This document shows, piece by piece, positions 1,961 to 31,980 of a stretch of 34,239 nt of DNA. A model generated the notes under the pieces. It saw only the letters and a program-made list of their open reading frames with translations, was not told the origin of the DNA and made no database searches. The position numbers and the translations under genes are program-made. Where the stretch lies: the IMG/VR virus record IMGVR_UViG_2917881069_000005; one strand, given 5' to 3'. The number at the start of each line of letters is the position of its first letter. Position 1 is the stretch's first letter. The DNA is from a virus. Its lineage: Duplodnaviria; Heunggongvirae; Uroviricota; Caudoviricetes.

Positions 1961-2433
1961 CACTCCACCTCCTGCTTCGGTTCTTGTATCGGCATCCATC
2001 TGATTACATCGCAATTACTTAGGTTGATGTCATCTCCAAGCCATCCTTGACCTTCAGACCAGCATTGCACGTAATACCCGCCTTCTGTGTCCACTACGCA
2101 CCACTGCGCGTCGTTCGGCATTCGCTCACTACAGCTTATCCAACCATCTGGAGCTACCGGTGCTGGAGGATAGCGATACAACGGAATAACTCGGCGCGGG
2201 TCCGCGTATTTATCTGGCGGACACGGCAATATGTAGCCGCAACCAATCCGCTCGACGTCTCGTAACTCTTCGTCATCAGTCCATGCTATCGGCTCTGCTT
2301 CCAGTGATGCCAGTGCGATACGAAACACATTAGCAAGCAGACTGTTTGACGATTGGTTATCGTGCGCCGGGTCGCTCAGGAAACCAGTGATGAATGATTT
2401 AATCTCCGCGCTTTCTCTGGTAATAGTGGTCAT
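1960..2433 (-). CDS. DUF551-type phage protein
   Basis: 157-aa ORF; C-terminal W-rich region (WISCSERMP...IRWMP) typical of DUF551 in lambdoid early regions. Confidence 0.5.
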   Translation of the reverse strand: MTTITRESAEIKSFITGFLSDPAHDNQSSNSLLANVFRIALASLEAEPIAWTDDEELRDVERIGCGYILPCPPDKYADPRRVIPLYRYPPAPVAPDGWISCSERMPNDAQWCVVDTEGGYYVQCWSEGQGWLGDDINLSNCDVIRWMPIQEPKQEVE

Positions 2434-2434
2434 A

Positions 2435-2623
2435 TCACTCTCCTTTAGTGCGCCCGTGGTTTTTCCAGCGGTTTTGCGCCGCGCTGGGTTTGTTAAGAGA
2501 ACACATCACGATATCAGCCGTGTTTGTGAACAATCCCATTCTGCGGTTACTGAGTTTTAACCATTGCTGGACGCCGCGCGCGTTTCTACAGGTCAAAAGA
2601 ATTTTTGCTTTACGGTTTTTCAT
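2435..2623 (-). CDS. small basic hypothetical protein (62 aa)
   Basis: ORF track; starts MKNRKAK, identical to first 7 codons of the upstream small ORF; start overlaps upstream stop (ATGA). Confidence 0.35.
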   Translation of the reverse strand: MKNRKAKILLTCRNARGVQQWLKLSNRRMGLFTNTADIVMCSLNKPSAAQNRWKNHGRTKGE

Positions 2624-2796
2624 CTTACTGCGTACCCTTTCTTCCGCCTGTTCTGTGACGCGCTAGGCTTACGCTTTGCGGCAAAAGCCACCTGACCAAA
2701 TGGATGGAATACCGCTATCTTATGGTTGCTGATAACCAGCTCCACCACACGCACAGGTCGCTGTAAAAAAAGTCGTTTTGCTTTACGGTTTTTCAT
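2620..2796 (-). CDS. small basic hypothetical protein (about 58 aa)
   Basis: Hand-translated (below the ORF-track size cutoff): MKNRKAKRLFLQRPVRVVELVISNHKIAVFHPFGQVAFAAKRKPSASQNRRKKGYAVR; AGGAGA about 9 nt upstream of ATG. Confidence 0.3.
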   Translation of the reverse strand: MKNRKAKRLFLQRPVRVVELVISNHKIAVFHPFGQVAFAAKRKPSASQNRRKKGYAVR

Positions 2797-2969
2797 CGTT
2801 TTGCTCTCCTGCGTTTCTTTGCTGCACGTCGTGCCGCCGCAATACCTGTATGGCGGCGCTTTGGTGCCGGGATGCCGCCATCAGTAGTAAAAAAAATGTG
2901 GTTTTATGAGTGACATATCCGCCCAAAGGCGGATCGGATGCGGTAACAGGCCAACAAATGCCACCTGCA

Positions 2970-3299
2970 TTACGTATTCTCCTTGTGCAGTTGCTTATTA
3001 ACGTAATCCACAATTTCAGATGACAGTTCAAACGGCGATTTCATCGCGTCAATATCCAGGTTTCTGTCAATATGTCGGATTAAATCATTCAGGGTTTCAG
3101 CACGGATTCCAGATTCAGAAATGCTGTTTTTGCGGCGCTCCTGAAGTTCAATCAGGGACTGCCGTAAGAGCGTCCACCACTCGCTGTCTACAACCGGCGA
3201 ACGCATACCCAGCATTTTGTCAGCAGCGGCAATCAGCTCGGTCAGGCTCTTATCGCTTATAGTGGTTTGTTGGTTCGCTTTTGTTTCCAGTACGCTCAT
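2970..3299 (-). CDS. hypothetical early protein (position and size resemble CPS-53 YfdT)
   Basis: 109-aa ORF, 4-bp overlap with upstream gene; no domain recognised. Confidence 0.45.
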   Translation of the reverse strand: MSVLETKANQQTTISDKSLTELIAAADKMLGMRSPVVDSEWWTLLRQSLIELQERRKNSISESGIRAETLNDLIRHIDRNLDIDAMKSPFELSSEIVDYVNKQLHKENT

Positions 3300-3658
3300 T
3301 TCTTATTCTCCGGTGCTTTCGGCATTACTGCCCAGTGAGTGATATTGACGTTTTCAAGGTCCCCGACCTGAAATGTCCACTGCCATTCTCCGGTTTCTTT
3401 TTGCCCCCAGGTGTACCAGAGAGAACGCCAGCCAATTAGCCAGCCTTCTCCGTTAGCATCGAATAACAAAACACTTTCATTTGCTGGTGGCAGTGCAGTT
3501 GACACTGGTATTACTTTGTTTTCCAGTGCCGCACATTTAGCTTCAAGCGCATCGAATTTACGCACCAGGTATTCAGCATCTGTTTCATTCACTTTCAGGT
3601 CTCGCGGTACACATCTCCCACGAAGAAACCCTTCCATTTCGAAAACATTCATGCGCAT
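3296..3658 (-). CDS. hypothetical early protein (position and size resemble CPS-53 YfdS, 120 aa)
   Basis: 120-aa ORF in operon; no domain recognised. Confidence 0.45.
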   Translation of the reverse strand: MRMNVFEMEGFLRGRCVPRDLKVNETDAEYLVRKFDALEAKCAALENKVIPVSTALPPANESVLLFDANGEGWLIGWRSLWYTWGQKETGEWQWTFQVGDLENVNITHWAVMPKAPENKK

Positions 3659-5746: not shown

Positions 5747-6198
5747 GCCAACGCAGTGGCAGTTGTGGCGGGGTTGTCACTCAGGCGTATGGTCAACCTG
5801 ACAATCCGGTGTCCTCAACGGGGAAAGAGTAACCCCGCCATACTTACCGCCGCGCCATTTCGCGGATTACCACAACGCTGAGAGCACTTAGCCAGTTACG
5901 GCACCACACTTTGTCGCGGCTCCATAAATGCTCTTATCGTTGCACCCTGGTCTCTTCCCAGGCGTCAAACCGAATCGCCACGCTGGTTAGGCGTCTTATC
6001 AGCATCATCATTGACTTGCACATTCCGGCTACCTGGTTTGTTTGCCCGAGCAAGGAGTGGATTGTCCCCTTTAACGTCCCCAGACCGCTAACGACGCATG
6101 TGCCATACGCCGTGTTACAACCAAATTTTGTTTGAATCTTGCCTGTTGCATGTTTCTTTTGGATACATTATGTATCTCAAAGGTACATTGTCAAGTAT

Positions 6199-6221
6199 AA
6201 AAAAACCTGCCGAAGCAGGTT
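6199..6221 (-). terminator. rho-independent terminator downstream of cI-like repressor gene
   Basis: On minus strand CCTGC-ttcg-GCAGG stem followed by T7 run, immediately after the repressor stop at 6234. Confidence 0.5.
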
Positions 6222-6233
6222 CATAAATATTGA

Positions 6234-6908
6234 TTAGGCCTTTATTTTGTATCTTCTTGGTTTTCCCGAGAAAATCACTGTACCAATTATAGAGCAATTA
6301 CCGTTGATCTTAATGTAAGGTTCAGGCCAGTTTGGGTTTAATGCTTTGAGGTAACGCTGTGTTCCATCTTCTATCAACCGCTTGAAGGTGGTTTCGCCTG
6401 TATCGTGCATCAATGCAATAACGTCGTCACCGTGGCAGGCAGGGACTTCAGGATCAACAAAAATCATGTCTCCCGGGCGGTACTCATCAATCATTGAATC
6501 ACCAATCACCCGCAAGATATAAGTCATTTCGCCACAGGGTACAGGGCAGGGATAAGTTTCTGCTGTGCTCAAATCAACCTCAGAATAGCCAACTTCTTTC
6601 CATGCTCCGGCCTGTACCCATGATATGACAGGGACTAACGTTATTTGTTTGTTAGTGATTGAAACATCAGGTTTTTTTGTGATGTTCGTTGTCTGGTGTT
6701 CTTGATCAAGCCATCCGACAGGCAGGTCGAAACATTTTTCGATGTGCCGTGCCATGCTGTCACCGATATTTTTAGTTGCACCATCTCCCATAAACCTGCT
6801 GGTCTGGGTTGGCTCGCGATCAATCATGGTGGCAAAGGAAGAATTCCCGCCAACACCATCTCTCAGTTTTCTGGCGTTAGACCGCCGGATGTCATGGACT
6901 GTTTTCAT
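6234..6908 (-). CDS. CI-like prophage repressor with LexA-like S24 peptidase domain
   Basis: 224-aa ORF; C-terminal S24 signature (GDSM...GD.IFVDPE, Ser/Lys-dyad-type region); divergent from cro-like gene. Confidence 0.8.
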   Translation of the reverse strand: MKTVHDIRRSNARKLRDGVGGNSSFATMIDREPTQTSRFMGDGATKNIGDSMARHIEKCFDLPVGWLDQEHQTTNITKKPDVSITNKQITLVPVISWVQAGAWKEVGYSEVDLSTAETYPCPVPCGEMTYILRVIGDSMIDEYRPGDMIFVDPEVPACHGDDVIALMHDTGETTFKRLIEDGTQRYLKALNPNWPEPYIKINGNCSIIGTVIFSGKPRRYKIKA

Positions 6909-6998
6909 AATGAAATTAAAACCCTTGTACCGTTAAGGTACAAGTATCTTGAAGGTTCATTTTAATCATGTAATATGTACATCGGAGGTACATATTGT
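6909..6998. promoter_or_regulatory. divergent cI/cro promoter-operator region with two palindromic operators
   Basis: Perfect 21-bp palindrome CTTGTACC-GTTAA-GGTACAAG (about 6923-6943) and ATGTACA-N6-GTACAT (about 6973-6993), the latter overlapping the cro RBS GGAGG. Confidence 0.5.
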
Positions 6999-7199
6999 AT
7001 GAAAGCGTATTGGGACTCTTTAACCAAAGAACAGCAGGGCGAGTTGGCCGGAAAAGTTGGCTCAACACCAGGCTACTTACGGCTGGTTTTCAATGGTTAT
7101 AAAAAAGCCAGTTTTGTGCTGGCTAAAAAACTTGAGCAATGCACGTCAGGTGCAATTACGAAATCTGACTTAAGACCGGATATCTATCCGAAAGATTAA
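6999..7199 (+). CDS. Cro-like HTH regulator (YdaS-like)
   Basis: Start at internal MKAYWD preceded by GGAGG; 66 aa; small HTH protein divergent from repressor. Confidence 0.6.
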   Translation: MKAYWDSLTKEQQGELAGKVGSTPGYLRLVFNGYKKASFVLAKKLEQCTSGAITKSDLRPDIYPKD

Positions 7200-7230
7200 C
7201 AGAACACCTTCAATTTTTAACCACAGAACG

Positions 7231-7794
7231 ATGAGGCTAACCGTGGGTAAGCATCACTGGAAAGTAGAAAAACAGCCTGAGTGGTACGTGAAAGCTGTCA
7301 GAAAAACTATCGCGGCGTTGCCGGGGGGGTACGCTGAAGCTGCTGAGTGGCTGGATGTAACAGAGAACGCTTTATTCAACCGCCTTCGTGCAGATGGCGA
7401 TCAGATTTTCCCGCTGGGATGGGCAATGATTTTACAGCGCGCGGCTGGCACTCACTACATTGCGGATGCTGTCGCACAGTCTGCTGGTGGGGTGTTTGTA
7501 TCGCTTCCTGAAATTGAGGAAGTAGAGAACGCCGATATAAACCAGCGCCTGCTGGAAGTCATCGAACAGATCGGGAGTTACTCAAAGCAGATTCGTTCGG
7601 CAATCGAAGATGGGGTAGTGGAGCCACACGAGCAGACAGCAATTAATGATGAGTTGTATCTGTCAATTTCGAAGCTCCAGGAGCATGCAGCACTGGTCTA
7701 CAAAATCTTTTGCGCTCCAGAAAAGAGTGACGCCCGCGAGTGTGCAGCTCCGGGCGTCGTGGCGTTTTGTGTCTGTGGAGAAACTAACGCATGA
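7231..7794 (+). CDS. YdaT-like protein (proposed CII-type regulator)
   Basis: 187-aa ORF directly after cro; position and sequence character as in Rac-type ydaS-ydaT pairs. Confidence 0.4.
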   Translation: MRLTVGKHHWKVEKQPEWYVKAVRKTIAALPGGYAEAAEWLDVTENALFNRLRADGDQIFPLGWAMILQRAAGTHYIADAVAQSAGGVFVSLPEIEEVENADINQRLLEVIEQIGSYSKQIRSAIEDGVVEPHEQTAINDELYLSISKLQEHAALVYKIFCAPEKSDARECAAPGVVAFCVCGETNA

Positions 7795-8627
7795 ACAGTT
7801 TAACGGCAAATAATCGTTTGTCGCAACAGCTGGTGGTCAGTGTCGCTGAACACCTGTTGTTACGGCATGAATGCAGATTACCAAATCACCTGGCTGTAAG
7901 TAACCACAGAGAACTTTACCTGACTGTGGGGGGCGAGTTGTGCAGGAACTTAACCGCTGGTTTCGTGACGGAAGAGGGCTTTATGTCCATGTTATTCGTT
8001 GGGAGCCAGAAACACAGCGCGTTATCTATCTTCGCAAAGACTACCCGCATGAGTGCTTTAGTCCTTTGTGGAAATTCAGGCGTGATTTTGTTGAGTGTGA
8101 AGGACCACCAGCACATTGATTCTGCCATTCCGGGACGTTACACTGTTCAGGCACCTTATAAAGCGGGTGCCGGGATTGGCGTCCTGGAATTGCATACGGC
8201 GACAATTGGCGCGTTAGCGTCTTTTTTGTTGCTACAACTCAGCTATACCCAAATTATGGTGGGCTGGGTGGGGGCACCGAAAGGTGCGCCGGTTTCCGTA
8301 TGCGCCGGTTACGCCAACCCTGCTCAGTTCACCACCAGCGAAATTGGCGTTTCCGGTGGTGGAAGTTATCCATTGCATACGGAGGCTGCCATCATGGCTA
8401 CTGTCCCAGCCCTCTCTCGTCTGAATGATGACGACTTACATAAACTCAGTTATGTAACAACTGCACTACGTGCTCTGCGCAAGGTAACTCTTTCGGATCC
8501 GCAGGCGCATCAGGTTCTGGTAGAAACCCTTCTTAACTTGCAGGCTGAACGTATTCGTCTGGCGGATAAGGCTAATTTTCATATTCACCGTCTCCTTAAT
8601 ATCAGCGGAGGGCATCGTCATGCTTAA
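7791..8627 (+). CDS. hypothetical protein
   Basis: 278-aa ORF; ATGA overlap with upstream stop suggests translational coupling; no domain recognised. Confidence 0.4.
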   Translation: MNSLTANNRLSQQLVVSVAEHLLLRHECRLPNHLAVSNHRELYLTVGGELCRNLTAGFVTEEGFMSMLFVGSQKHSALSIFAKTTRMSALVLCGNSGVILLSVKDHQHIDSAIPGRYTVQAPYKAGAGIGVLELHTATIGALASFLLLQLSYTQIMVGWVGAPKGAPVSVCAGYANPAQFTTSEIGVSGGGSYPLHTEAAIMATVPALSRLNDDDLHKLSYVTTALRALRKVTLSDPQAHQVLVETLLNLQAERIRLADKANFHIHRLLNISGGHRHA

Positions 8628-8856
8628 TCCGTTGATTCTCAATATTTGCCGTTTGCTTCAGCGTAAAAAAACATCAATTCCTACAGTTGGGCAGTGGTAC
8701 ACCACGCCTGCAGGGCATGTTCTACGTGTTAGCCTGGTTGACCGTGAATGTCAGAAGGTGATTTGTGAACCGCTGGGCCGTAATTACCGCGTCAGTATGC
8801 CGCTTATAGCCTTTCGCTCCGGAAAAAACATGAAGCATCTCGGAGGTGCAGCATGA
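8620..8856 (+). CDS. hypothetical protein (78 aa)
   Basis: ORF track; 8-bp overlap with upstream gene and ATGA overlap with downstream replication gene. Confidence 0.35.
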   Translation: MLNPLILNICRLLQRKKTSIPTVGQWYTTPAGHVLRVSLVDRECQKVICEPLGRNYRVSMPLIAFRSGKNMKHLGGAA

Positions 8857-13350: not shown

Positions 13351-13371
13351 TTTTGTGGAGAAAGTTGATGC

Positions 13372-13734
13372 GTGATATTCAAATGGTTCTTGGAACGTTG
13401 GGGGGCATGGGTGGCAAATAATCACGAGGATGTCACCTGGTCGTCTATTGCTGCAGGATTTAAAGGACTAATCCCTTCAAAAGTAAAATCCCGCCCGCAA
13501 TGTTGTGACGATGACGCGATGATCATTTGTGGGTGCATGGCTCGCCTGAAAAAGAACAACAGCGATTTGCACGATTTATTAGTGGATTATTATGTAGGTG
13601 GTATGACGTTTATGGCGCTTGCCCGTAAACATGGGCGTTCTGATTGCTGGGTTGGGCGTTTATTGCAAAAGGCTGAAGGTGTAGTTGATGGCATGTTAAT
13701 GATGTTAGAAATTGAGCTAGAGATGGATCGTTAG
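13372..13734 (+). CDS. late antiterminator Q (short QuuD-type); N-terminus frame-disrupted
   Basis: [27 protein letters not shown] is Q-family-like; long frame can only start at GTG 13372, while a well-placed ATG (13368, GGAG 8 nt upstream) is in another frame and stops after 17 codons. Confidence 0.6.
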
Positions 13735-14889: not shown

Positions 14890-15942
14890 ATGAAAAACAC
14901 TGTAAAAATAAACAGCGTTGATTTAATCAACGCTGATTGCCTGCATTTTATTCAGTCCCTGCCTGATGATTCCATTGACCTGATTGTTACCGATCCGCCG
15001 TACTTCAAGGTGAAACCCAACGGCTGGGACAATCAGTGGAAAGGGGACGAAGATTACCTTAAGTGGCTGGATCACTGTCTGGCCCAGTTCTGGCGGGTGT
15101 TAAAACCTGCTGGAAGCCTTTACCTGTTCTGTGGGCATCGCCTGGCATCTGATATTGAGATCATGATGCGTGAACGTTTCAACGTGCTTAACCATATCAT
15201 CTGGGCGAAGCCGTCCGGACGTTGGAATGGGTGTAATAAAGAAAGTCTGCGCGCATATTTTCCTGCCACAGAGCGCGTTCTGTTTGCTGAACATTACCAG
15301 GGGCCATATCGCGGCAAAAGTGACGGCTATGCGGCAAAAGAAAGGGAACTCAAACAGCACATAATGGCACCGCTGATATCGTATTTCAGGGATGCTCGTG
15401 CCGAACTGGGTATAACGGCAAAACAAATTGCCGAAGCCACAGGTAAGAAAAATATGGTTTCCCACTGGTTTGGTGCCAGTCAGTGGCAGTTGCCGAATGA
15501 GGCTGACTATCGGAAGTTACAGGCACTGTTTTCCCGTATAGCGGCAGAGAAGTTTCAGGAACAACAACTGGAACAACCACACCACCAGCTGGTGGCATCT
15601 TATGATTCACTGAATCGCAAATATTCTGAATTGCTGGATGAGTTTAAATCTCTCCGGCGCTATTTCTCCGTATCAGTCTCCGTGCCTTATACCGATGTCT
15701 GGATGCATAAACCCGTTCAGTTCTACCCGGGTAAACATCCGTGTGAGAAACCGGCGGATATGCTCAGGCAAATAATCAATGCCAGTAGTCGACCTGGTGA
15801 GCTGGTTGCTGATTTTTTTATGGGATCCGGTTCCACAATAAAAGCAGCAATGGCGCTGGGGCGTCGGGCCTTAGGTGTTGAGCTTGAGTCAGAGCGGTTT
15901 AACCAGACAGTGAAAGAGATAAACGAGCTGGTGGGGAAATAA
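14890..15942 (+). CDS. DNA methyltransferase, N6_N4 (beta-class amino-MTase) family
   Basis: DPPY motif (LIVTDPPYF) near N-terminus and AdoMet motif FFMGSGST near C-terminus; 350 aa. Confidence 0.8.
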
Positions 15943-15945
15943 TCT

Positions 15946-15973
15946 GGTGGCCACGTCAGGTGGCCTTTTTATT
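15946..15973 (+). terminator. rho-independent terminator between methyltransferase and holin
   Basis: GGCCAC-gtcag-GTGGCC followed by TTTTTATTT. Confidence 0.5.
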
Positions 15974-16009
15974 TCCATTACACAGCACCCGCATCTGCGA
16001 GGTGGGGTT

Positions 16010-16225
16010 ATGAAATCCATGGATAAGTTAACAACGGGTGTCGCCTATGGCACCTCAGCAGGTAGTGCCGGGTACTGGTTTTTACAGTTGCTCGATAAAG
16101 TCACGCCCTCACAGTGGGCGGCAATAGGTGTGCTGGGTAGTCTGGTATTTGGCTTGCTGACGTATCTGACAAACCTTTATTTCAAGATTAAAGAAGACAA
16201 GCGTAAGGCTGCACGGGGAGAGTAA
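16010..16225 (+). CDS. pinholin (phage 21 S21-like) with dual start
   Basis: MKSMDK dual-start motif; closely matches recalled S21 ([17 protein letters not shown]...[13 protein letters not shown]...[20 protein letters not shown]); ORF track 15947..16225. Confidence 0.75.
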
Positions 16226-16229
16226 TTCA

Positions 16230-16544
16230 ATGACTCAAAACTATGAACTGATTGTGAAAGGGATCCGCAATTTTGAGAATAAAGTTACGGTAACTGTAGC
16301 GTTACGGGACAAAAAACGCTTTGACGGTGAAATTTTTGACCTGGACATCTCGCTGGACCGTGTTGAAGGTGCCGCGCTGGAGTTTTATGAGGCAGCAGCC
16401 AGAAGGAGCATCAGACAGGTCTTCCTGGATGTTGCTGCCGGGTTATGTGAAGGGGACGAGCTGTTGCCAGAAACGCGCCCCTGTTCAGAGGCGCGGTATA
16501 CCATAAAAATTAACAGTTCTGATAACTCGATTAAGGGTTGTTAG
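16230..16544 (+). CDS. hypothetical protein inserted between holin and endolysin
   Basis: 104-aa ORF with GGAG upstream; no family recognised. Confidence 0.4.
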   Translation: MTQNYELIVKGIRNFENKVTVTVALRDKKRFDGEIFDLDISLDRVEGAALEFYEAAARRSIRQVFLDVAAGLCEGDELLPETRPCSEARYTIKINSSDNSIKGC

Positions 16545-16599: not shown

Positions 16600-17598
16600 A
16601 TGAGCGCAAAAATCAAATACGGCCTGTCAGCTGCTGTTCTGGCGCTGATTGCTGCAGGCGCGTCTGCTCCTCAAATACTTGACCAGTTTCTGGATGAAAA
16701 AGAGGGTAACCACACTACGGCATACCGCGATGGTTCCGGTATATGGACCATCTGTCGTGGTGCCACAATGGTGGATGGTAAGCCCGTCATACCGGGAATG
16801 AAGCTGTCGAAGGAAAAATGCGACCAGGTTAACGCTATTGAACGTGATAAGGCGCTGGCATGGGTGGAGCGCAATATTAAAGTACCACTGACCGAACCAC
16901 AGAAAGCGGGTATAGCGTCATTTTGTCCCTATAACATTGGCCCCGGTAAGTGTTTCCCGTCGACGTTTTATAAGCGGCTGAATGCCGGTGATCGTAAGAG
17001 TGCATGCGAGGCGATTCGCTGGTGGATAAAAGATGGTGGGCGCGATTGCCGCATACGTTCAAATAACTGCTATGGACAGGTTATTCGTCGTGACCAGGAA
17101 AGCGCATTAGCCTGTTGGGGGGATAGATCAGTGAGCAGAGTCGCCGCGATTATTTATGCTCTGGTTATCTGCATCATCGTCTGCCTGTCGTGGGCGGTCA
17201 ATCATTACCGTGATAACGCCATCGCCTACAAAGAACAGCGTGATAAAAAAGTCAGTGAGCTGAAGCAGGCGACCGCCACCATTACTGACATGCAGCAACG
17301 CCAGCGTGCTGCTGATGTACTCGATGCTAAATACACGAAGGAGTTGGCTGATGCGAAAGCTGAAAATGATGCTCTTCGGCGCAAGCTTGATAATGGTGGT
17401 CGGGTGCTCGTCAAAGGAAAATGCTCTGTGCCATCCTCAGCCGAAACCTCCAGCGCCTCCGGCATGGGCAATGATGCCACCGTCGAACTCTCTCCAGTTG
17501 CTGGACGAAACGTTCTCGGTATCCGGGACGGAATCATCAGAGACCAGACAGCACTGAGAACGCTTCAGGAATATATCAGGACGCAATGCCTTCGATGA
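16600..17598 (+). CDS. SAR endolysin (T4-lysozyme-type, P21 R-like) whose frame runs without a stop into Rz
   Basis: N-terminal signal-anchor ([18 protein letters not shown]) and lysozyme core ([22 protein letters not shown]); no stop before Rz; G6 run at about 17117-17122. Confidence 0.7.
17131..17598 (+). CDS. Rz: i-spanin Rz
   Basis: [34 protein letters not shown]... nearly identical to recalled lambda Rz; GTG start preceded by GGGGGGA. Confidence 0.75.
17351..17557 (+). CDS. Rz1: o-spanin Rz1 (embedded in Rz, +1 frame)
   Basis: [19 protein letters not shown] lipobox, Pro-rich [12 protein letters not shown]; inside ORF 17306..17557. Confidence 0.7.
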
Positions 17599-18414: not shown

Positions 18415-18906
18415 ATGGATCATGAGTTGAAAAACCTGGTGCTGAATATTAATCAACTGGCGGCTTTATCTGGTCTGCACCGCCAGACTGTCGTGGCAAG
18501 ACTGAAAAACATTCGTCCCGCTGGTGGACATGACAAACTCAAGCTATACCGGTTGACCGATATTCTGACTGAATTTATGGGGTTACCACCGCCGGTTGCT
18601 GAGGGCGAAATGGATCCACATGAACGCAAAGCCTGGTATCAGTCTGAACGTGAGCGTCTTAAGTTCGAACAGGAAACGGCACAACTCATTCCGGCCAGTG
18701 ATGTCAGACGGGAGTTTGCCATCTGGGCAAAAGCGGTCGTGCAGGTGCTGGAGACATTACCGGATATTCTGGAACGTGACTGCGGCCTGCAGCCTGCCGC
18801 TGTGAGCCGTGTTCAGTCCATTATTGATGATCTGCGCGATCAGATAGCCCTGCGGGTGACCGAAGCAGGTGCGGATGATGAGGAGGAATTACAGCAGGAG
18901 GAGTAA
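18415..18906 (+). CDS. terminase small subunit (Nu1-like, N-terminal HTH)
   Basis: 163 aa; HTH-like LNINQLAALSGLHRQTVVARLKN; immediately upstream of and overlapping (TAATG) the large terminase. Confidence 0.6.
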   Translation: MDHELKNLVLNINQLAALSGLHRQTVVARLKNIRPAGGHDKLKLYRLTDILTEFMGLPPPVAEGEMDPHERKAWYQSERERLKFEQETAQLIPASDVRREFAIWAKAVVQVLETLPDILERDCGLQPAAVSRVQSIIDDLRDQIALRVTEAGADDEEELQQEE

Positions 18907-21009
18907 TGCTGAATCAGGAAACCGCAAAGGCAGCACGAACCGATTCAGGTTATATCCTTCGCGCACCGAGACGAATGCTGGTTGCTGATGCCGTTGCTCA
19001 GTATATGCGGGTGCCCATGGGGGCCGGGAACTCAGTCCCGTGGGATCCGCTGGTGGCACCGTATGTTATTGAGCCGATGAACTGCCTGGCCTCGCGTGAA
19101 TACGACGCAGTGATATTTGTTGGCCCGGCACGAACTGGCAAGACTATCGGCCTGATTGACGGCTGGGTGATTTACAACGTGATTTGCGATCCTGCGGATA
19201 TGTTGATCATTCAGATGACGGAGGAAAAAGCCCGCGAACACTCCAAAAAAACGACTTGCCAGAACGTTTCGCGTCAGCCCGGAAGTGGTCAGTCGCCTGA
19301 GTCCGAACAAAAATGACAACAACGTTTATGACAGAACATTCCTTGCTGGCAACTACCTGAAAATCGGCTGGCCGTCAGTCAATATCATGTCCTCATCAGA
19401 TTATAAATGCGTGGCGCTGACGGATTATGACCGTTTTCCGGAAGATATTGATGGCGAGGGGGATGCCTTCTCTCTTGCCTCAAAACGTACCACCACATTT
19501 ATGTCCAGTGGTATGACGCTGGTGGAGAGTTCCCCCGGCAGGGATGTGAAGGATGTGAAATGGCGACGGACTTCACCGCATGAGGCTCCACCAACCACGG
19601 GGATACTGTCGCTCTATAACCGTGGCGATCGCCGTCGCTGGTACTGGCCCTGTCCACACTGTGGTGAGTATTTTCAGCCCTGCGGCGATGTGGTTGCTGG
19701 TTTCCGTGATATTGCCGATCCCGTGCTGGCAAGTGAGGCGGCTTATATTCAGTGTCCTTCCTGTTCAGGACGGATTATGCCTGAACAAAAACGTGAGCTG
19801 AACGGACGTGGGGTCTGGTTGCGGGATGGTGAATCCATCAATGCGGATGGCAGTCGTTATGGTGATCCCCGACGCTCACGTATTGCGTCATTCTGGATGG
19901 AGGGTCCGGCAGCTGCTTACCAGACACTCTCGCAACTCGTTTACAAACTGCTTACTGCAGAACAGGAATACGAGACAACCGGAAGTGAAGAAACACTCAA
20001 GACGGTTATCAATACCGACTGGGGATTACCTTATCTTCCCCGTGCCAGCATGGAGCAACGAAAAAGTGAACTGCTTGAACAGCGGGCAGAGCCAGTTCCT
20101 TCCCGCAGTGTGCCGGATGGCGTTAATTTCCTGGTGGCGACAGTTGATGTGCAGGCGGGACGTCATCGCCGTTTTGTGGTTCAGGTAACGGGCTATGGCA
20201 GCCGTGGCGAACGCTGGATTATTGATCGTTACAACATCACGCAGTCATTGCGCGGTGACAGCGACGGGGAGAGCCAGCGAATTGATCCGGCCAGCTATCC
20301 GGAAGACTGGGATGTCCTGCTGACGGATGTTTTTCATAAAAGCTGGCCGCTGGCCTCCGATCCTTCTCAACAAATGCGACTGATGGCAATGGCGGTGGAC
20401 TCCGGCGGTGAAGACGGGGTCACTGATAATGCCTATAAATTCTGGCGTCGTTGCCGTCGTGATGGCCTTGGTAAACGTATTTACCTGTTTAAGGGCGACA
20501 GCATCCGGCGCGCAAAACTGATCACCCGTACATTCCCTGATAACACCGGACGAACGGGCCGACGGGCGCAGGCCGCAGGTGATGTGCCGCTCTGGCTTCT
20601 TCAGACGGATGCCCTGAAAGACCGGGTGAATAACGCGTTATGGCGTGACTCTCCAGGTCCCGGCTATGTGCATTTCCCTGACTGGCTGGGGAGCTGGTTT
20701 TACGACGAACTGACGTATGAAGAGCGGAGTAGTGACGGGAAATGGAGTAAGCCGGGTCGCGGTGCCAACGAAGCTTTTGACCTGATGGTGTATGCCGAGG
20801 CTCTGGTCATTCTGCATGGATACGAAAAGATCCGCTGGCCGGATGCACCGGAGTGGGCGAGCCGGGAAACCTGGCTGGAGTGTGTCCCGGACAGTACCGA
20901 ACCGTCACCCTCACCGGAACCGGTATCCACGCCTGTTAAAAAACAAAAACGGAAGAAAACAGTAACTGACGATGTTAACCCCTGGCTGACTTCCGGAGGA
21001 TGGTTATGA
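18906..21009 (+). pseudogene. A: terminase large subunit (lambda gpA family) split into two frames at an A7 run
   Basis: ORFs 18906..19316 (Walker-A-like VGPARTGKT) and 19285..21009 (WYWPCPHCGEYF, gpA-like); deleting one A in AAAAAAA at about 19245-19251 joins them into one frame reading ...HSKKRLARTFRVSPEVVSRL... Confidence 0.6.
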
Positions 21010-21218: not shown

Positions 21219-22726
21219 TGGCAATTCTTGATGATGTGATTGGCGTTTTTTCACCAGGATGGAAAGCGGCAAGGCTGCGTTCCCGTGCGGTGATCCAGGC
21301 TTATGAGGCCGTAAAAACGACGCGGACACATAAAGCCCGGCGGGAAAACCGAACTGCCGACCAGTTAAGCCAGTACGGGGCCGTGTCGTTACGTGAGCAG
21401 GCCCGTTACCTTGATAACAACCACGATCTGGTCATTGGTGTATTTGACAAGCTGGAAGAACGGGTGGTGGGGAAAAACGGGATTATTGTCGAGCCACATC
21501 CGGTATTACGCAATGGGGCCATTGCCCGTGATCTGGCAGCGGAGATACGCACCCGATGGAGTGAATGGTCTGTCAGTCCGGAAGTCACCGGGCAGTTTAC
21601 CCGTCCGATGCTGGAACGTCTGATGCTGCGTACCTGGCTGCGCGATGGTGAGGTGTTTGCCCAGATGGTTTCCGGGCGCATAAACAGCCTGACGCCTTCT
21701 GCCGGTGTTCATTTCTGGCTGGAGGCGCTCGAGCCGGACTTTATTCCCATGACCAGTGATGAGAGCAACAGGCTGAATCAGGGCGTGTTTGTTGATGACT
21801 GGGGGCGTCCCGAAAAATATCTGGTGTATAAAAGCCGTCCCGTATCCGGGCGGCAGATGGAAACCAAAGAAGTGGATGCAGAGCGAATGCTGCATCTTAA
21901 ATTTGTTCGCCGTCTGCACCAGATGCGCGGGACGTCTTTGTTGTCCGGTGTGCTGATCCGCCTCAGTGCCCTGAAAGAGTATGAAGATTCTGAGCTGACT
22001 GCAGCAAGGATCGCCGCTGCTCTGGGGATGTACATCCGCAAAGGCGACGGACAGAGCTATGAAACGGATGGTAATGACAGCAAGGAGAATGAACGCGAGC
22101 TTACCATTCAGCCAGGCATTATTTACGACGATCTGAAACCCGGCGAAGAAATCGGAATGGTGAAGTCGGATCGCCCCAATCCTAATCTTGAAACTTTTCG
22201 TAATGGTCAGTTGCGTGCCGTGGCGGCGGGTAGTCGTCTGAGTTTTTCCAGTACAGCGCGCAACTATAACGGCACTTACAGCGCCCAGCGTCAGGAGCTG
22301 GTTGAATCCACTGATGGCTACCTGATCCTGCAGGACTGGTTTATTGGTGCCGTCACCCGCCCGATGTATCGTGCCTGGCTGAAACAGGCTGTGGCATCCG
22401 GTGTTATCAGGCTACCCCGCGATCTTGATCGTTCTTCACTGTATACCGCGGTGTATTCCGGACCGGTGATGCCGTGGATTGACCCTGTTAAGGAGGCTGA
22501 GGCCTGGAAAATTCAGATTCGTGGTGGAGCGGCGACAGAATCAGACTGGGTACGTGCAGGTGGTCGTAATCCGGATGATGTTAAACGTCGGCGCAAGGCA
22601 GAAATTGATGAAAACCGCAAGCTGGATCTGGTATTTGATACCGATCCTGCCAGTGATAAAGGAGGCAGCAGTGCCGCAACGAAACGACAGGAGCCGCAGC
22701 ACACCGACGACCAGTCCGAAGAATAA
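21218..22726 (+). CDS. B: portal protein (lambda gpB family)
   Basis: 502 aa from MAILDD (TGATG overlap with W stop); portal-size, position and sequence character; ORF track 21146..22726. Confidence 0.75.
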   Translation: MAILDDVIGVFSPGWKAARLRSRAVIQAYEAVKTTRTHKARRENRTADQLSQYGAVSLREQARYLDNNHDLVIGVFDKLEERVVGKNGIIVEPHPVLRNGAIARDLAAEIRTRWSEWSVSPEVTGQFTRPMLERLMLRTWLRDGEVFAQMVSGRINSLTPSAGVHFWLEALEPDFIPMTSDESNRLNQGVFVDDWGRPEKYLVYKSRPVSGRQMETKEVDAERMLHLKFVRRLHQMRGTSLLSGVLIRLSALKEYEDSELTAARIAAALGMYIRKGDGQSYETDGNDSKENERELTIQPGIIYDDLKPGEEIGMVKSDRPNPNLETFRNGQLRAVAAGSRLSFSSTARNYNGTYSAQRQELVESTDGYLILQDWFIGAVTRPMYRAWLKQAVASGVIRLPRDLDRSSLYTAVYSGPVMPWIDPVKEAEAWKIQIRGGAATESDWVRAGGRNPDDVKRRRKAEIDENRKLDLVFDTDPASDKGGSSAATKRQEPQHTDDQSEE

Positions 22727-22739
22727 TTCCTGGTTCAGG

Positions 22740-23714
22740 ATGCAGGCTGGTCACCAGAGTGACGCGGATATTTATATTTATGACGAGATTGGTTTCTGGG
22801 GTGTTACAGCGAAGCAGTTTATCAGTGATCTGAATGCACTGGGCGATATCACCCACATTAATCTCCATATCAATTCACCGGGTGGCGATGTCTTTGAAGG
22901 CATCGCCATTTTTAATGCGCTGAAAACACATGGTGCGTCCATTACCGTTTATGTCGACGGTGTGGCGGCGTCAATGGCGTCGGTCATTGCGATGGTGGGA
23001 AACCCGGTCATTATGCCGGAAAACACCTTCATGATGATTCATAAACCATTTGGCTTTACGGGCGGTGATGCGGAGGACATGCGCACCTATGCTGACCTGC
23101 TCGATAAGGTTGAGGCGGTTCTGTTACCCGCTTATGCACAGAAAACCGGGAAAACCACCGATGAAATTGCTGCCATGCTGGCGGATGAGACCTGGATGTC
23201 CGGTGCCGAATGTCTGGCACATGGATTTGCTGATCAGGTGACGCCAGCCGTTAAGGCAATGGCATGTATTCAGTCAAAACGTACAGAGGAATTTAAAAAG
23301 ATGCCGGAATCCATTCGAAACATGATTACTCCGCCACGCAACAGTGCTCCACGCGTACAGGATGATGAACCAGCAGCCTCCCGGACGCCAGTGCAGGCAG
23401 CAGCACCCGTGGTGGATGAAAACAGTATCCGTGCGCAGGTACTGGCAGAGCAAAAAGCGCGTGTAAACGGTATTAATGATCTGTTTGCCATGTTTGGCGG
23501 GCGTTATCAGACGCTGCAGGCTCAGTGTCTTGCCGATCCTGAATGTTCGCTGGAGCAGGCCCGCGAAAAGCTGTTGAACGAGATGGGGCGCGAGTCCACG
23601 CCATCCAATAAAAATACCCCGGCTCATATTTATGCCGGTAACGGTAATTTTGTGGGGGACGGGATCCGCCAGGCGCTGATGGCGCGTGCCGGATTTGAAA
23701 AAACCGAAACGTGA
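22740..23714 (+). CDS. ClpP-like prohead protease with C-terminal scaffold-like extension
   Basis: ClpP-type signatures (HINSPGGDV, AASMASVIAM, MIHKP); start at internal MQAGHQ of ORF 22479..23714. Confidence 0.7.
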   Translation: MQAGHQSDADIYIYDEIGFWGVTAKQFISDLNALGDITHINLHINSPGGDVFEGIAIFNALKTHGASITVYVDGVAASMASVIAMVGNPVIMPENTFMMIHKPFGFTGGDAEDMRTYADLLDKVEAVLLPAYAQKTGKTTDEIAAMLADETWMSGAECLAHGFADQVTPAVKAMACIQSKRTEEFKKMPESIRNMITPPRNSAPRVQDDEPAASRTPVQAAAPVVDENSIRAQVLAEQKARVNGINDLFAMFGGRYQTLQAQCLADPECSLEQAREKLLNEMGRESTPSNKNTPAHIYAGNGNFVGDGIRQALMARAGFEKTET

Positions 23715-23730
23715 TAATGTCTACAACGGG

Positions 23731-24699
23731 ATGACCCTGCGTGAATATGCCCGTATGTCACTGACTGAACGGGGTATTGGGGTTTCCAGTTATAACCCGA
23801 TGCAGATGGTCGGTGCGGCGTTCACACACAGTACGTCTGACTTCGGTAATATTCTGCTGGATGTTGCGAACAAAGCCATTCTGCAGGGCTGGGAAGATGC
23901 TCCTGAAACCTATGAACAGTGGACGCGGAAAGGTCAGTTGTCTGATTTTAAAATTGCCCATCGTGTGGGTATGGGGGGCTTCAGTGCTCTGCGTCAGGTG
24001 CGTGAAGGGGCGGAATATAAATACGTCACCACCGGAGATAAACAGGCCACTATTGCACTGGCGACCTATGGCGAGCTGTTCAGTATCACCCGTCAGGCCA
24101 TTATCAATGATGATCTGAATATGCTGACCGATGTCCCGATGAAACTGGGCCGTGCGGCGAAATCCACTATTGCCGATCTGGTTTATGCCATTCTGACGTC
24201 TAACCCGAAAATCTCCACAGATAATGTAAGTCTGTTCGATAAAGCGAAACATGCAAACGTACTGGAGAGCGCTGCAATGGACGTGGCATCGCTGGATAAA
24301 GCCCGCCAGTTGATGCGCGTTCAGAAAGAGGGGGAGCGTCATCTGAATATTCGTCCTGCGTTCGTACTGGTACCGACGGCGATGGAGTCTGTTGCTAACC
24401 AGGTCATTCGCTCCTCAAGTGTCAAGGGGGCTGACATTAACGCCGGTATTATTAACCCGGTGAAAGATTTTGCGACCGTTATTGCAGAGCCTCGTCTTGA
24501 TGATAACAGCCAGACCACCTTCTACCTGGCTGCGTCAAAAGGCTCCGATACAATTGAAGTGGCTTATCTCAACGGTGTGGATACGCCATATATTGATCAG
24601 ATGGAGGGCTTCAGTGTGGATGGCGTGACAACGAAAGTGCGTATTGACGCCGGTGTCGCGCCAGTTGATCACCGCGGTCTGGTGAAATGTACGGCGTAA
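23731..24699 (+). CDS. major capsid protein (HK97-fold; not lambda gpE-like)
   Basis: Follows protease; about 320 aa; start ambiguous (GTG 23686 or ATG 23731). Confidence 0.65.
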   Translation: MTLREYARMSLTERGIGVSSYNPMQMVGAAFTHSTSDFGNILLDVANKAILQGWEDAPETYEQWTRKGQLSDFKIAHRVGMGGFSALRQVREGAEYKYVTTGDKQATIALATYGELFSITRQAIINDDLNMLTDVPMKLGRAAKSTIADLVYAILTSNPKISTDNVSLFDKAKHANVLESAAMDVASLDKARQLMRVQKEGERHLNIRPAFVLVPTAMESVANQVIRSSSVKGADINAGIINPVKDFATVIAEPRLDDNSQTTFYLAASKGSDTIEVAYLNGVDTPYIDQMEGFSVDGVTTKVRIDAGVAPVDHRGLVKCTA

Positions 24700-24785: not shown

Positions 24786-25108
24786 ATGGCAAAGAATTTT
24801 GTAGAAGAAGGAAAAACGGTGGCGATTGTTGCCAGTGCAGCCATCAGCAGCGGAGATCTGGTGCAGGTGGGTGATGTTTTGCGGTGGCGCTGACCGATAT
24901 TCCACAGGGTGAAACAGGCGACGGCATGACCGAAGGTGTGTTTATGCTGCCTAAGCTGAAAACGGATGACATGAAAACGGGTAAGAAGGTTTATCTGAAG
25001 TCCGGAAAAGTTCAGCTGACTAACAGCGGCTCTGATCCGCTGGTCGGGGTTGTCTGGGCAGATGCCGGAACCAGTGCAGAAGAAGTGCCGGTAAAACTCA
25101 ATGTCTGA
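24786..25108 (+). pseudogene. small head protein (DUF2190-like), frame-disrupted
   Basis: ATG 24786 with GGAGA RBS opens a 35-codon frame (MAKNFVEEGKTVAIVASAAISSGDLVQVGDVLRWR*) abutting out-of-frame ORF 24884..25108; one added G near 24882 would give a continuous about 107-aa product. Confidence 0.45.
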
Positions 25109-31281: not shown

Positions 31282-31980
31282 ATGCAGGATATTCCACAGG
31301 AAACACATCATGAGACGACACGCCTCACTCAGTCAGCCCAGGTGGTGCTCTGGGAAATCGATCTGACAGAGGTCGGTGGTGAACGTTATTTTTTCTGTAA
31401 TGAGCAGAACGAAAAAGGTGAGCCGGTTACCTGGCAGGGGCGGCAGTATCAGGCATACCCCATTCAGGGGACGGGATTTGAACTGAACGGCAAGGGCAGT
31501 GCTGCCCGTCCGACACTGACGGTTTCTAACCTGCACGGAATGGTCACCGGGATGGCGGAAGACCTGCAGAGTCTGGTCGGCGGAACGGTGGTCAGGCGTA
31601 AGGTTTACGCCCGTTTTCTGGATGCGGTGAACTTCGTCAACGGAAACAGTGACGCCGATCCGGAGCAGGAGGTGATCAGCCGCTGGCGCATCGAGCAGTG
31701 CAGCGAACTGAGCGCGGTCAGTGCCTCTTTTGTACTGTCCACGCCGACGGAAACGGACGGTGCTGTTTTTCCGGGGCGCATCATGCTGGCTAATACCTGC
31801 ACCTGGACCTATCGCGGTGATGAGTGCGGTTATCACGGTCCGGCTGTCGCTGATGAATATGACCAGCCGACGTCCGATATCACGAAGGATAAATGCAGCA
31901 AATGCCTGAGTGGTTGTAAGTTTCGCAATAACGTCGGCAACTTTGGCGGCTTCCTTTCCATTAACAAACTTTCGCAGTAA
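31282..31980 (+). CDS. L: minor tail protein L
   Basis: 232 aa, near-identical to recalled lambda gpL including C-terminal Cys cluster. Confidence 0.85.
   Translation: MQDIPQETHHETTRLTQSAQVVLWEIDLTEVGGERYFFCNEQNEKGEPVTWQGRQYQAYPIQGTGFELNGKGSAARPTLTVSNLHGMVTGMAEDLQSLVGGTVVRRKVYARFLDAVNFVNGNSDADPEQEVISRWRIEQCSELSAVSASFVLSTPTETDGAVFPGRIMLANTCTWTYRGDECGYHGPAVADEYDQPTSDITKDKCSKCLSGCKFRNNVGNFGGFLSINKLSQ

Follow-up and report, generated by a model that had tools for sequence, protein, structure and literature searches.

The closest described counterpart of the lysis region analysed here is the pinholin-SAR endolysin cassette of phage 21 and other lambdoid phages (S21, R21, Rz/Rz1), whose gene order and protein families recur in the window, the term used here for the whole stretch of 34,239 bases under analysis. 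By analogy with phage 21, the endolysin R, once exported, would stay anchored in the membrane through a weakly hydrophobic N-terminal segment, and depolarisation by the pinholin would set it free. On the model of phage 21 and lambda, translation of Rz would start at its own GTG and be coupled to the termination of R, and Rz and Rz1 would then disrupt the outer membrane. The window differs from phage 21 in carrying a gene of the DUF1327/YdfR family between the holin and endolysin genes, as do many Escherichia coli prophages, and its endolysin belongs to the rrrQ/933W-like group and is not R21 itself; the P21-like protein P0008, which is considered further below, is only 60% identical to it.

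As a whole, the window is an mEp460-like lambdoid prophage with 97-99% identity to PhiR40_1, PhiR47_1, mEp460 and many E. coli prophages. Prophages of this kind (PhiR47_1, PhiR40_1 and mEp460, and those of E. coli HS13-1, E138 and PCP06235) are sited at dusA and are 97-99.9% identical to the window in the replication, lysis, head and tail genes, whereas mosaicism is seen in the immunity region and in the early part of the left arm. Between Q and the holin gene PhiR47_1 possesses tRNA genes, in contrast to the window and PhiR40_1, both of which encode a DNA methyltransferase there. Small gaps clustered at 7226-7241 proved to be a same-length substitution block at a mosaic junction by the immunity region, which causes no frameshift, and were set aside.

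An exact-protein look-up led to GenBank contig PDIG01000039.1 (83,622 bp; assembly GCA_004745185.1; sequence records L230, L246 and L248), the final 34,239 bases of which match the window with 100% identity, a contig position being the window position plus 49,383. The exact portal protein was uninformative about the source, since it is very common (11,136 blocks) and the places listed for it were other prophages. The PDIG00000000 assembly represents Escherichia cryptic clade II strain E2661, which came from intertidal sediment (PMC6639607). The lysis cassette and the junction at issue comprise the following features, in window coordinates.

16010..16225, + strand: pinholin-type holin of the P21 S family, first gene of the cassette (PF04971 Phage_holin_2_1, E=3.6e-35)
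16230..16544, + strand: DUF1327/YdfR-family gene between holin and endolysin, intact (PF07041, E=8.7e-40)
16600..17134, + strand: SAR endolysin R, a GH24 lysozyme of 177 aa when the extra G is removed (PF00959, aa 33-167)
17117-17122, + strand: GGGGGG run flanked by T and A, equivalent to PDIG01000039.1:66500-66505, the extra G of which gives rise to the fused ORF
17131..17598, + strand: i-spanin Rz (PF03245), whose GTG start overlaps the R stop (GTGA) in the G5 form
17351..17557, + strand: o-spanin lipoprotein Rz1 (PF06085, E=3.7e-21), embedded in Rz in the +1 frame

Apart from the junction, each component has the properties expected of its family. The holin gene is 216 nt long in relatives, where its position matches, and the ORF taken from the earliest GTG spans 15947..16225; the exact DUF1327 protein is recorded in only five contigs, the source contig among them. 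R contains, as read from its translation, the motif E35-X8-D44-X5-T50 of the GH24/T4-type lysozyme catalytic domain, and its residues 8-24 form a Gly/Ala/Ser-rich, weakly hydrophobic segment that by composition and hydropathy is of the SAR type, with a 19-residue Kyte-Doolittle maximum of 1.78 versus 2.73 for the membrane segment of Rz. The pinholin partner of such an endolysin lies two genes upstream, where PF04971 ('Bacteriophage P21 holin S') was matched. Rz has a 19-residue N-terminal membrane segment and, by a match to the full PF03245 profile, the periplasmic coiled-coil domain of an i-spanin, and the embedded Rz1, which is unaffected by the G6 run, has a lipobox-like VVGC (...LIMVVGC) within a 19-residue stretch, as befits an o-spanin. 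The real locus is thus the standard pinholin/SAR-endolysin/Rz-Rz1 cassette of an mEp460-like prophage, an arrangement that is already known.

In the deposited sequence, R and Rz are not separate. A 332-aa ORF (16600..17598, + strand) runs without an internal stop from the SAR-type GH24 endolysin into the i-spanin, and Pfam recognizes both parts in it, Phage_lysozyme (PF00959) at aa 33-167 with E=7.3e-24 and Rz (PF03245) at aa 206-330 with E=4.6e-28, the latter covering positions 1-125 of a profile of 126. The in-frame fusion across the G6 run that had been noticed in the sequence-only reading is therefore present as deposited. The junction reads ...GCC TGT TGG GGG GAT AGA TCA GTG AGC..., in which the GTG at 17131-17133 shares the frame of the fused ORF and the TGA at 17132-17134 lies in the +1 frame; reading these four bases bears out the GTGA overlap described earlier. 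It had also been predicted that one G fewer would restore two genes, and in silico removal of a single G does so, yielding an R of 177 aa (...ACWGIDQ*), whose TGA overlaps the GTG of Rz, and an Rz of 155 aa. Both products are identical to proteins of E. coli HS13-1 (lysozyme and lysis protein, the latter WP_001300226.1), and the source contig itself has Rz on record as a protein of its own, 155 aa long. The fused ORF is real in the deposited sequence, and the evidence set out below speaks against its presence in the organism.

A comparison with homologous R-Rz junctions, which had been proposed as a check, found G5 in the relatives, with separate R and Rz genes. When a 71-mer spanning the junction was searched in 5,426 complete E. 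coli genomes, it was found in 1,344 of them, at 1,626 places, and all of the matches listed were 70/71 with one gap, corresponding to G5. Alignment with PhiR47_1, HS13-1 and UID2404240032 revealed G6 versus G5 as the sole difference across the junction, and over a 1-kb R-Rz segment the window is 99.9% identical to HS13-1, APEC 16-1068 and phage PhiR47_1, the gap being the only difference. A 41-mer constructed so that only G6 copies seed megablast retrieved a single record, a diverged prophage copy in E. coli SCU-485, in which the annotation gives a frameshift or an internal stop for every one of the holin, DUF1327, lysozyme, Rz and iss genes. Exact-pattern scans for G6 gave no hits in IMG/VR, in GTDB species representatives or in JGI metagenomes, and those for G5 gave at least 120 contigs in IMG/VR, two GTDB representatives and 84 JGI metagenome contigs. 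The occurrence of G6 in SCU-485, at the same run in another prophage, marks the run as an indel hotspot, whether by error or by mutation.

The fused protein was similarly sought. The exact 332-aa sequence is absent from an index of 153 billion gene positions, likely because the depositor annotated R as a pseudogene. In a set of 5.8 billion proteins, lysozyme-Rz ORFs were encountered only as isolated entries (P0001, P0003 and P0008), each on one contig and each with its fusion junction at a different position; these are sporadic frameshifts and do not constitute a family. Such ORFs arise because a +1 shift leads into the frame of Rz, and no stop interrupts this frame along the final codons of R, as is seen in both the window and P0001/P0003; one base inserted there is enough for R to be read on into Rz. 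A natural fusion would be expected to conserve its frame across independent genomes, and no such conservation was found. A search of a survey of 528 two-component spanins (PMC6139136) yielded no passage on an endolysin-spanin fusion.

The G6 run is one of at least seven indels of the same kind in the window, so that it is the pattern which decides between artefact and biology. Comparison with five relatives identified seven single-base indels private to the window, every one of which lengthens or shortens a run of identical bases.

13392, + strand: +1 indel, G1 to G2, in antiterminator Q, 8 codons in; absent from 4/4 aligned relatives and from L249
17117, + strand: +1 indel, G5 to G6, at R/Rz
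17605, + strand: +1 indel, T1 to T2, just past the Rz stop, in a small 50-aa ORF annotated in relatives
19245..19251, + strand: A7 run (A6 in relatives), splitting the large terminase into 18906-19316 and 19285-21009
23707, + strand: +1 indel, A2 to A3, splitting a ClpP-like protease/major capsid fusion gene
24877..24880, + strand: T4 run (T5 in relatives), truncating a DUF2190/Phage_cement_2 head gene
34225, + strand: -1 indel, A3 to A2, in tail-tip protein J, near the contig end

None of the seven occurs in any of the mEp460-like relatives, and their effects on the genes concerned are considerable. The large terminase is a single ORF of 699-700 aa in relatives and the protease-capsid gene one of 675 aa, for which no product is recorded from the source contig; the DUF2190 gene, which encodes 107 aa in relatives, is represented there by fragments of 50 and 74 aa, and Q, a 121-aa protein in L249, has no recorded product. 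More generally, the gene table of the source contig lists no product for R, Q, the terminase or the capsid gene, gives Rz separately and has DUF2190 in fragments; missing products are what would be expected had the depositor marked those genes as pseudogenes. Over 17.7 kb the window has six private 1-nt indels (the one in Q being the seventh) and 38 private substitutions, whereas each of the five relatives has, over the same 17.7 kb, 57-106 substitutions of its own but not a single isolated 1-nt indel. Counting one that is shared with two relatives in addition to the seven private ones, the final ∼26 kb of the window contain eight run-length indels. A minority of those that are private to it may be genuine, and the change from G5 to G6 is in itself also plausible as natural slippage.

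The substitutions are of a different character. The private codon changes of the window comprise 32 that are synonymous, three that are nonsynonymous and none that creates a stop, which fits genes under purifying selection and implies that the prophage has not been decaying for long enough to collect seven frameshifts. A decayed prophage was rejected on this ground, and also because no IS insertions or deletions were found and because indels of the same kind affect plsB and ubiA, which are outside the prophage.

These two genes lie 5-8 kb upstream of the window on its contig and contain three indels in 3.3 kb. Two private 1-nt indels (A1 to A2 and C2 to C1) break the frame of plsB into three segments and one cuts ubiA, and the resulting pieces are 97-100% identical to E. 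coli proteins. In L246, which is the reverse complement of bases 41343-61816 of the contig, the plsB sites are at 17215 and 17619 and the ubiA site is at 19821. In E. coli, plsB is essential. Strain E2661 was cultured overnight in LB (PMC6639607), and since it grew, the frameshifts in an essential gene cannot be real. In a sister Ion Torrent assembly, E2748 (PDIF), which was found through a look-up of PanA, plsB is likewise broken, at a different site; this assembly was unsuitable as a clonal control for the G run, its prophage being a different relative with 97-99% identity. A reliable sequence would be free of comparable frameshifts in genes that must be intact, and here they were found in plsB, ubiA, the terminase, the capsid gene, Q and J.

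On the Ion Torrent platform each homopolymer is read as one signal, and miscounts of its length are the characteristic error. E2661 was sequenced by this method, using single-end reads of 35-400 nt at 40x coverage, jointly the lowest among 16 strains, and assembled with MIRA/SPAdes (PMC6639607). Gene splitting by frameshifts at low coverage would fit the CDS densities in Table 1 of the same study, which are about 1,000-1,050 per Mb at 40-60x versus about 910-930 at 100x (PMC6639607). The Logan assembly SRR6148326 differs from the GenBank contig over 7.5 kb by only one indel, in the length of a G run in dgkA, and is presumably the same strain, given this identity and a protein found nowhere else in the collection. 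A look-up by means of the rare DUF1327 protein yielded no SRR6148326 Logan contig that spans the R-Rz junction.

Among the nearest relatives of the lysis region, indels are about as many as substitutions. L249 (GCA_014468455.1) differs from the window by five mismatches and four indels over 6.3 kb, and L250 (Logan ERR3653583) by one mismatch and two indels over 2.1 kb; for L229 (GCA_028436695.1), in which all genes are intact, the figures over 19.1 kb are 26 mismatches and the same six indels. No clonal relative of strain E2661 came to light that had been sequenced on a different platform, and the nearest, L249 and L229, still differ by a few substitutions.

It is very probable, then, that the fused ORF is an artefact, in which a run expected to be G5 in E2661 was over-called as G6 in an Ion Torrent draft. 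Under this explanation, the G5 run that the endolysin gene has at its 3′ end would have been called one base too long, and the +1 error would shift R into the frame of Rz and lead directly into it, because the stop of R and the start of Rz overlap and no stop codon interrupts the Rz frame between the G run and that start. The run, 8 nt upstream of the Rz GTG, is probably also the Shine-Dalgarno element of Rz. What is found here is what a flow artefact entails, namely a one-base change in a run, flow-based reads and an excess of private indels over substitutions that extends to essential genes. The indels of the window match the homopolymer errors of Ion Torrent and 454 in being one-base run changes scattered in coding genes, one of them essential, and none of the data from the window is inconsistent with such errors. 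Of the three origins that the sequence-only reading had left standing (a true fusion, a homopolymer error or a lesion that inactivates lysis), the homopolymer error is strongly supported by the Ion Torrent source, the G5 of the relatives and the many other private indels of the assembly, and a true fusion is not supported.

A recent +1 slippage mutation in the E2661 prophage, which would make G6 real and a lesion, is improbable. In that event all of Rz would be appended to the C terminus of R and lysis would be impaired or altered; the membrane segment of Rz would follow the periplasmic domain, probably inverting or mislocalising the Rz part and tethering the lysozyme, and Rz initiated from its own GTG might persist. 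Homopolymer runs are natural sites of slippage and prophage decay does occur, and both the G6 record of SCU-485 and the singletons P0001, P0003 and P0008, found among 5.8 billion proteins, are compatible with a mutation of this type. Slippage would nonetheless require this one indel to be real within a set that demonstrably includes errors, in a draft produced by Ion Torrent, with equivalent private indels in the essential plsB on the same contig. It would also have to accommodate the presence of seven private indels in a sequence that very few substitutions separate from its nearest relatives, the 32 synonymous and three nonsynonymous codon changes without any stop, and the fact that for three of the indels in the window the run is just 1-2 bases long, a poor substrate for slippage. 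A G6 truly present in E2661, such that the prophage makes a ∼37 kDa SAR-endolysin/i-spanin fusion with two membrane segments, possibly together with free Rz from the internal GTG, must be considered very improbable.

Far less credible still is a selected fusion protein that would couple degradation of the wall to disruption of the outer membrane. The 332-aa frame is open and both domains are intact, as such a protein would require, yet among ∼1,600 junction copies in E. coli only the frameshift-ridden SCU-485 has G6, which is absent from IMG/VR, the metagenomes and the GTDB representatives alike, and the nearest relatives have separate R and Rz with identical protein sequences. The exact protein is unrecorded among the 153 billion gene positions, the other fused ORFs are singletons whose junctions differ, and a search of the spanin survey yielded no passage on a fusion with an endolysin (PMC6139136). 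The topology also appears incoherent, as a type II membrane segment would lie behind a periplasmic domain. Equally far-fetched is the possibility that the G run is a recoding site, at which ribosomal +1 frameshifting or transcriptional slippage would produce both R and R-Rz from one gene. A tRNA decoding GGG can re-pair after a +1 shift on a G run, and the run is placed exactly where the two frames meet, but G5, the state that is both ancestral and universal, gives two separate genes for which no recoding is needed, and equivalent indels occur in this assembly at sites that are not recoded, plsB among them. Transcriptional slippage, moreover, usually needs longer A/T runs.

If G6 were true, the prophage would offer a natural test of whether lysis can still proceed with a lysozyme that is fused to a spanin or anchored at each of its ends, and a real fusion would be a modest curiosity in lysis biology; with homopolymer over-calling as the preferred explanation, the endolysin-Rz fusion is almost certainly no biological feature. 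The case is rather one for caution, since a single-base error at an overlapping R stop and Rz start produces a plausible two-domain 'fusion protein' and not an obvious truncation, and Pfam matches are good on both halves of fusions made by such an error. Homopolymer frameshifts are frequent in the E2661 draft and probably likewise in the sister Ion Torrent drafts, and work on gene content or pseudogenes in Escherichia cryptic clade II that draws on these drafts needs homopolymer correction first.

The large terminase, which in relatives is a single gene of 699-700 aa, is present in the window as two ORFs, and the seven-adenine run responsible for the split is a private homopolymer indel of the same type as the G6 run at the junction of the SAR endolysin gene (R) and Rz. 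Further private 1-nt differences (absent from the aligned relatives) are found in other phage genes; they are listed here, with that of the terminase, in window coordinates.

13368-13734, antiterminator Q, frameshifted 8 codons in by an indel at 13392 (G1 to G2)
17605, private 1-nt indel (T1 to T2) directly past the Rz stop, within a 50-aa small ORF annotated in relatives
18906-21009, large terminase, split into ORFs of 136 aa and 574 aa; A7 at 19245-19251 versus A6 in relatives
22479-24699, ClpP-like protease/major capsid fusion gene, split by a +1 indel at 23707
24877, DUF2190/Phage_cement_2 gene, next after the protease-capsid gene, truncated; T4 versus T5 in relatives
34225, private 1-nt indel (A3 to A2) in the tail protein J gene; the contig ends 15 nt further on

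In relatives, the protease/major capsid fusion gene is 675 aa long. The lesion in Q is masked in ORF lists because a GTG at 13372 keeps a 120-aa ORF open in the shifted frame, and the source contig has no recorded Q protein. Unlike these indels, the difference at 31979 (A2 in the window versus A3), at the stop codon of the tail protein L gene, looks like natural polymorphism at a gene end, since the state found in the window is common to two of the five relatives.

Chromosomal genes outside the window are affected as well. In L246, the reverse complement of positions 41343-61816 of the source contig (PDIG01000039.1, strain E2661), the following were detected.

L246 16494-18914, plsB, an essential gene, with two private 1-nt indels
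L246 19077-19947, ubiA, with one private 1-nt indel

The plsB gene is also broken in the sister Ion Torrent assembly of E2748, at a site different from that in L246. The plsB and ubiA indels, together with the plsB break in E2748, point to homopolymer errors that extend assembly-wide in this Ion Torrent project. Over 7.5 kb, L246 and the Logan assembly SRR6148326, which apparently represent one strain, differ solely by G2 versus G1 in dgkA (L246 15997), the gene being intact (122 aa) in the GenBank version and cut to 109 aa in the Logan version.

Differences of gene content are also evident. A megablast comparison with the five closest relatives gave no match for three stretches of the window (1971-3308, 6132-7215 and 8174-8689), which are mosaic segments. 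They contain early-left genes, a cI-like S24 repressor (6234-6908) and its partner, and a portion of a Rha-like gene. In the whole collection, the DUF551 protein at 1960-2433 is recorded for just two contigs. A pair of Panacea-domain genes (1-1045), annotated in phage PhiR47_1 as PanA antitoxin and PanT toxin, adjoins chromosomal zur in the source contig, at the prophage's left edge. Between Q and the holin, the window carries the following gene.

14890-15942, N6/N4 DNA methyltransferase, 350 aa

In PhiR47_1, HS13-1 and UID2404240032 this position is occupied by four tRNA genes; the two are alternative cargo modules that have been swapped.

Elsewhere, G6 at the R-Rz junction occurs in a single record, that of E. 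coli SCU-485 (NZ_CP053245.1, 3843670-3843710), a diverged prophage remnant adjoining ompC in which every lysis gene and iss are annotated as frameshifted or with an internal stop, a pattern that may reflect either error or genuine decay. Singleton ORFs joining lysozyme to Rz occur in other assemblies (protein-collection entries P0001, 329 aa; P0003, 310 aa, from an NCBI genome of 4.9 Mb with six member sequences; and P0008, 319 aa), with frameshifts at differing sites near the 3′ end of R. Lysozyme-Rz fused ORFs are an annotation trap that recurs.
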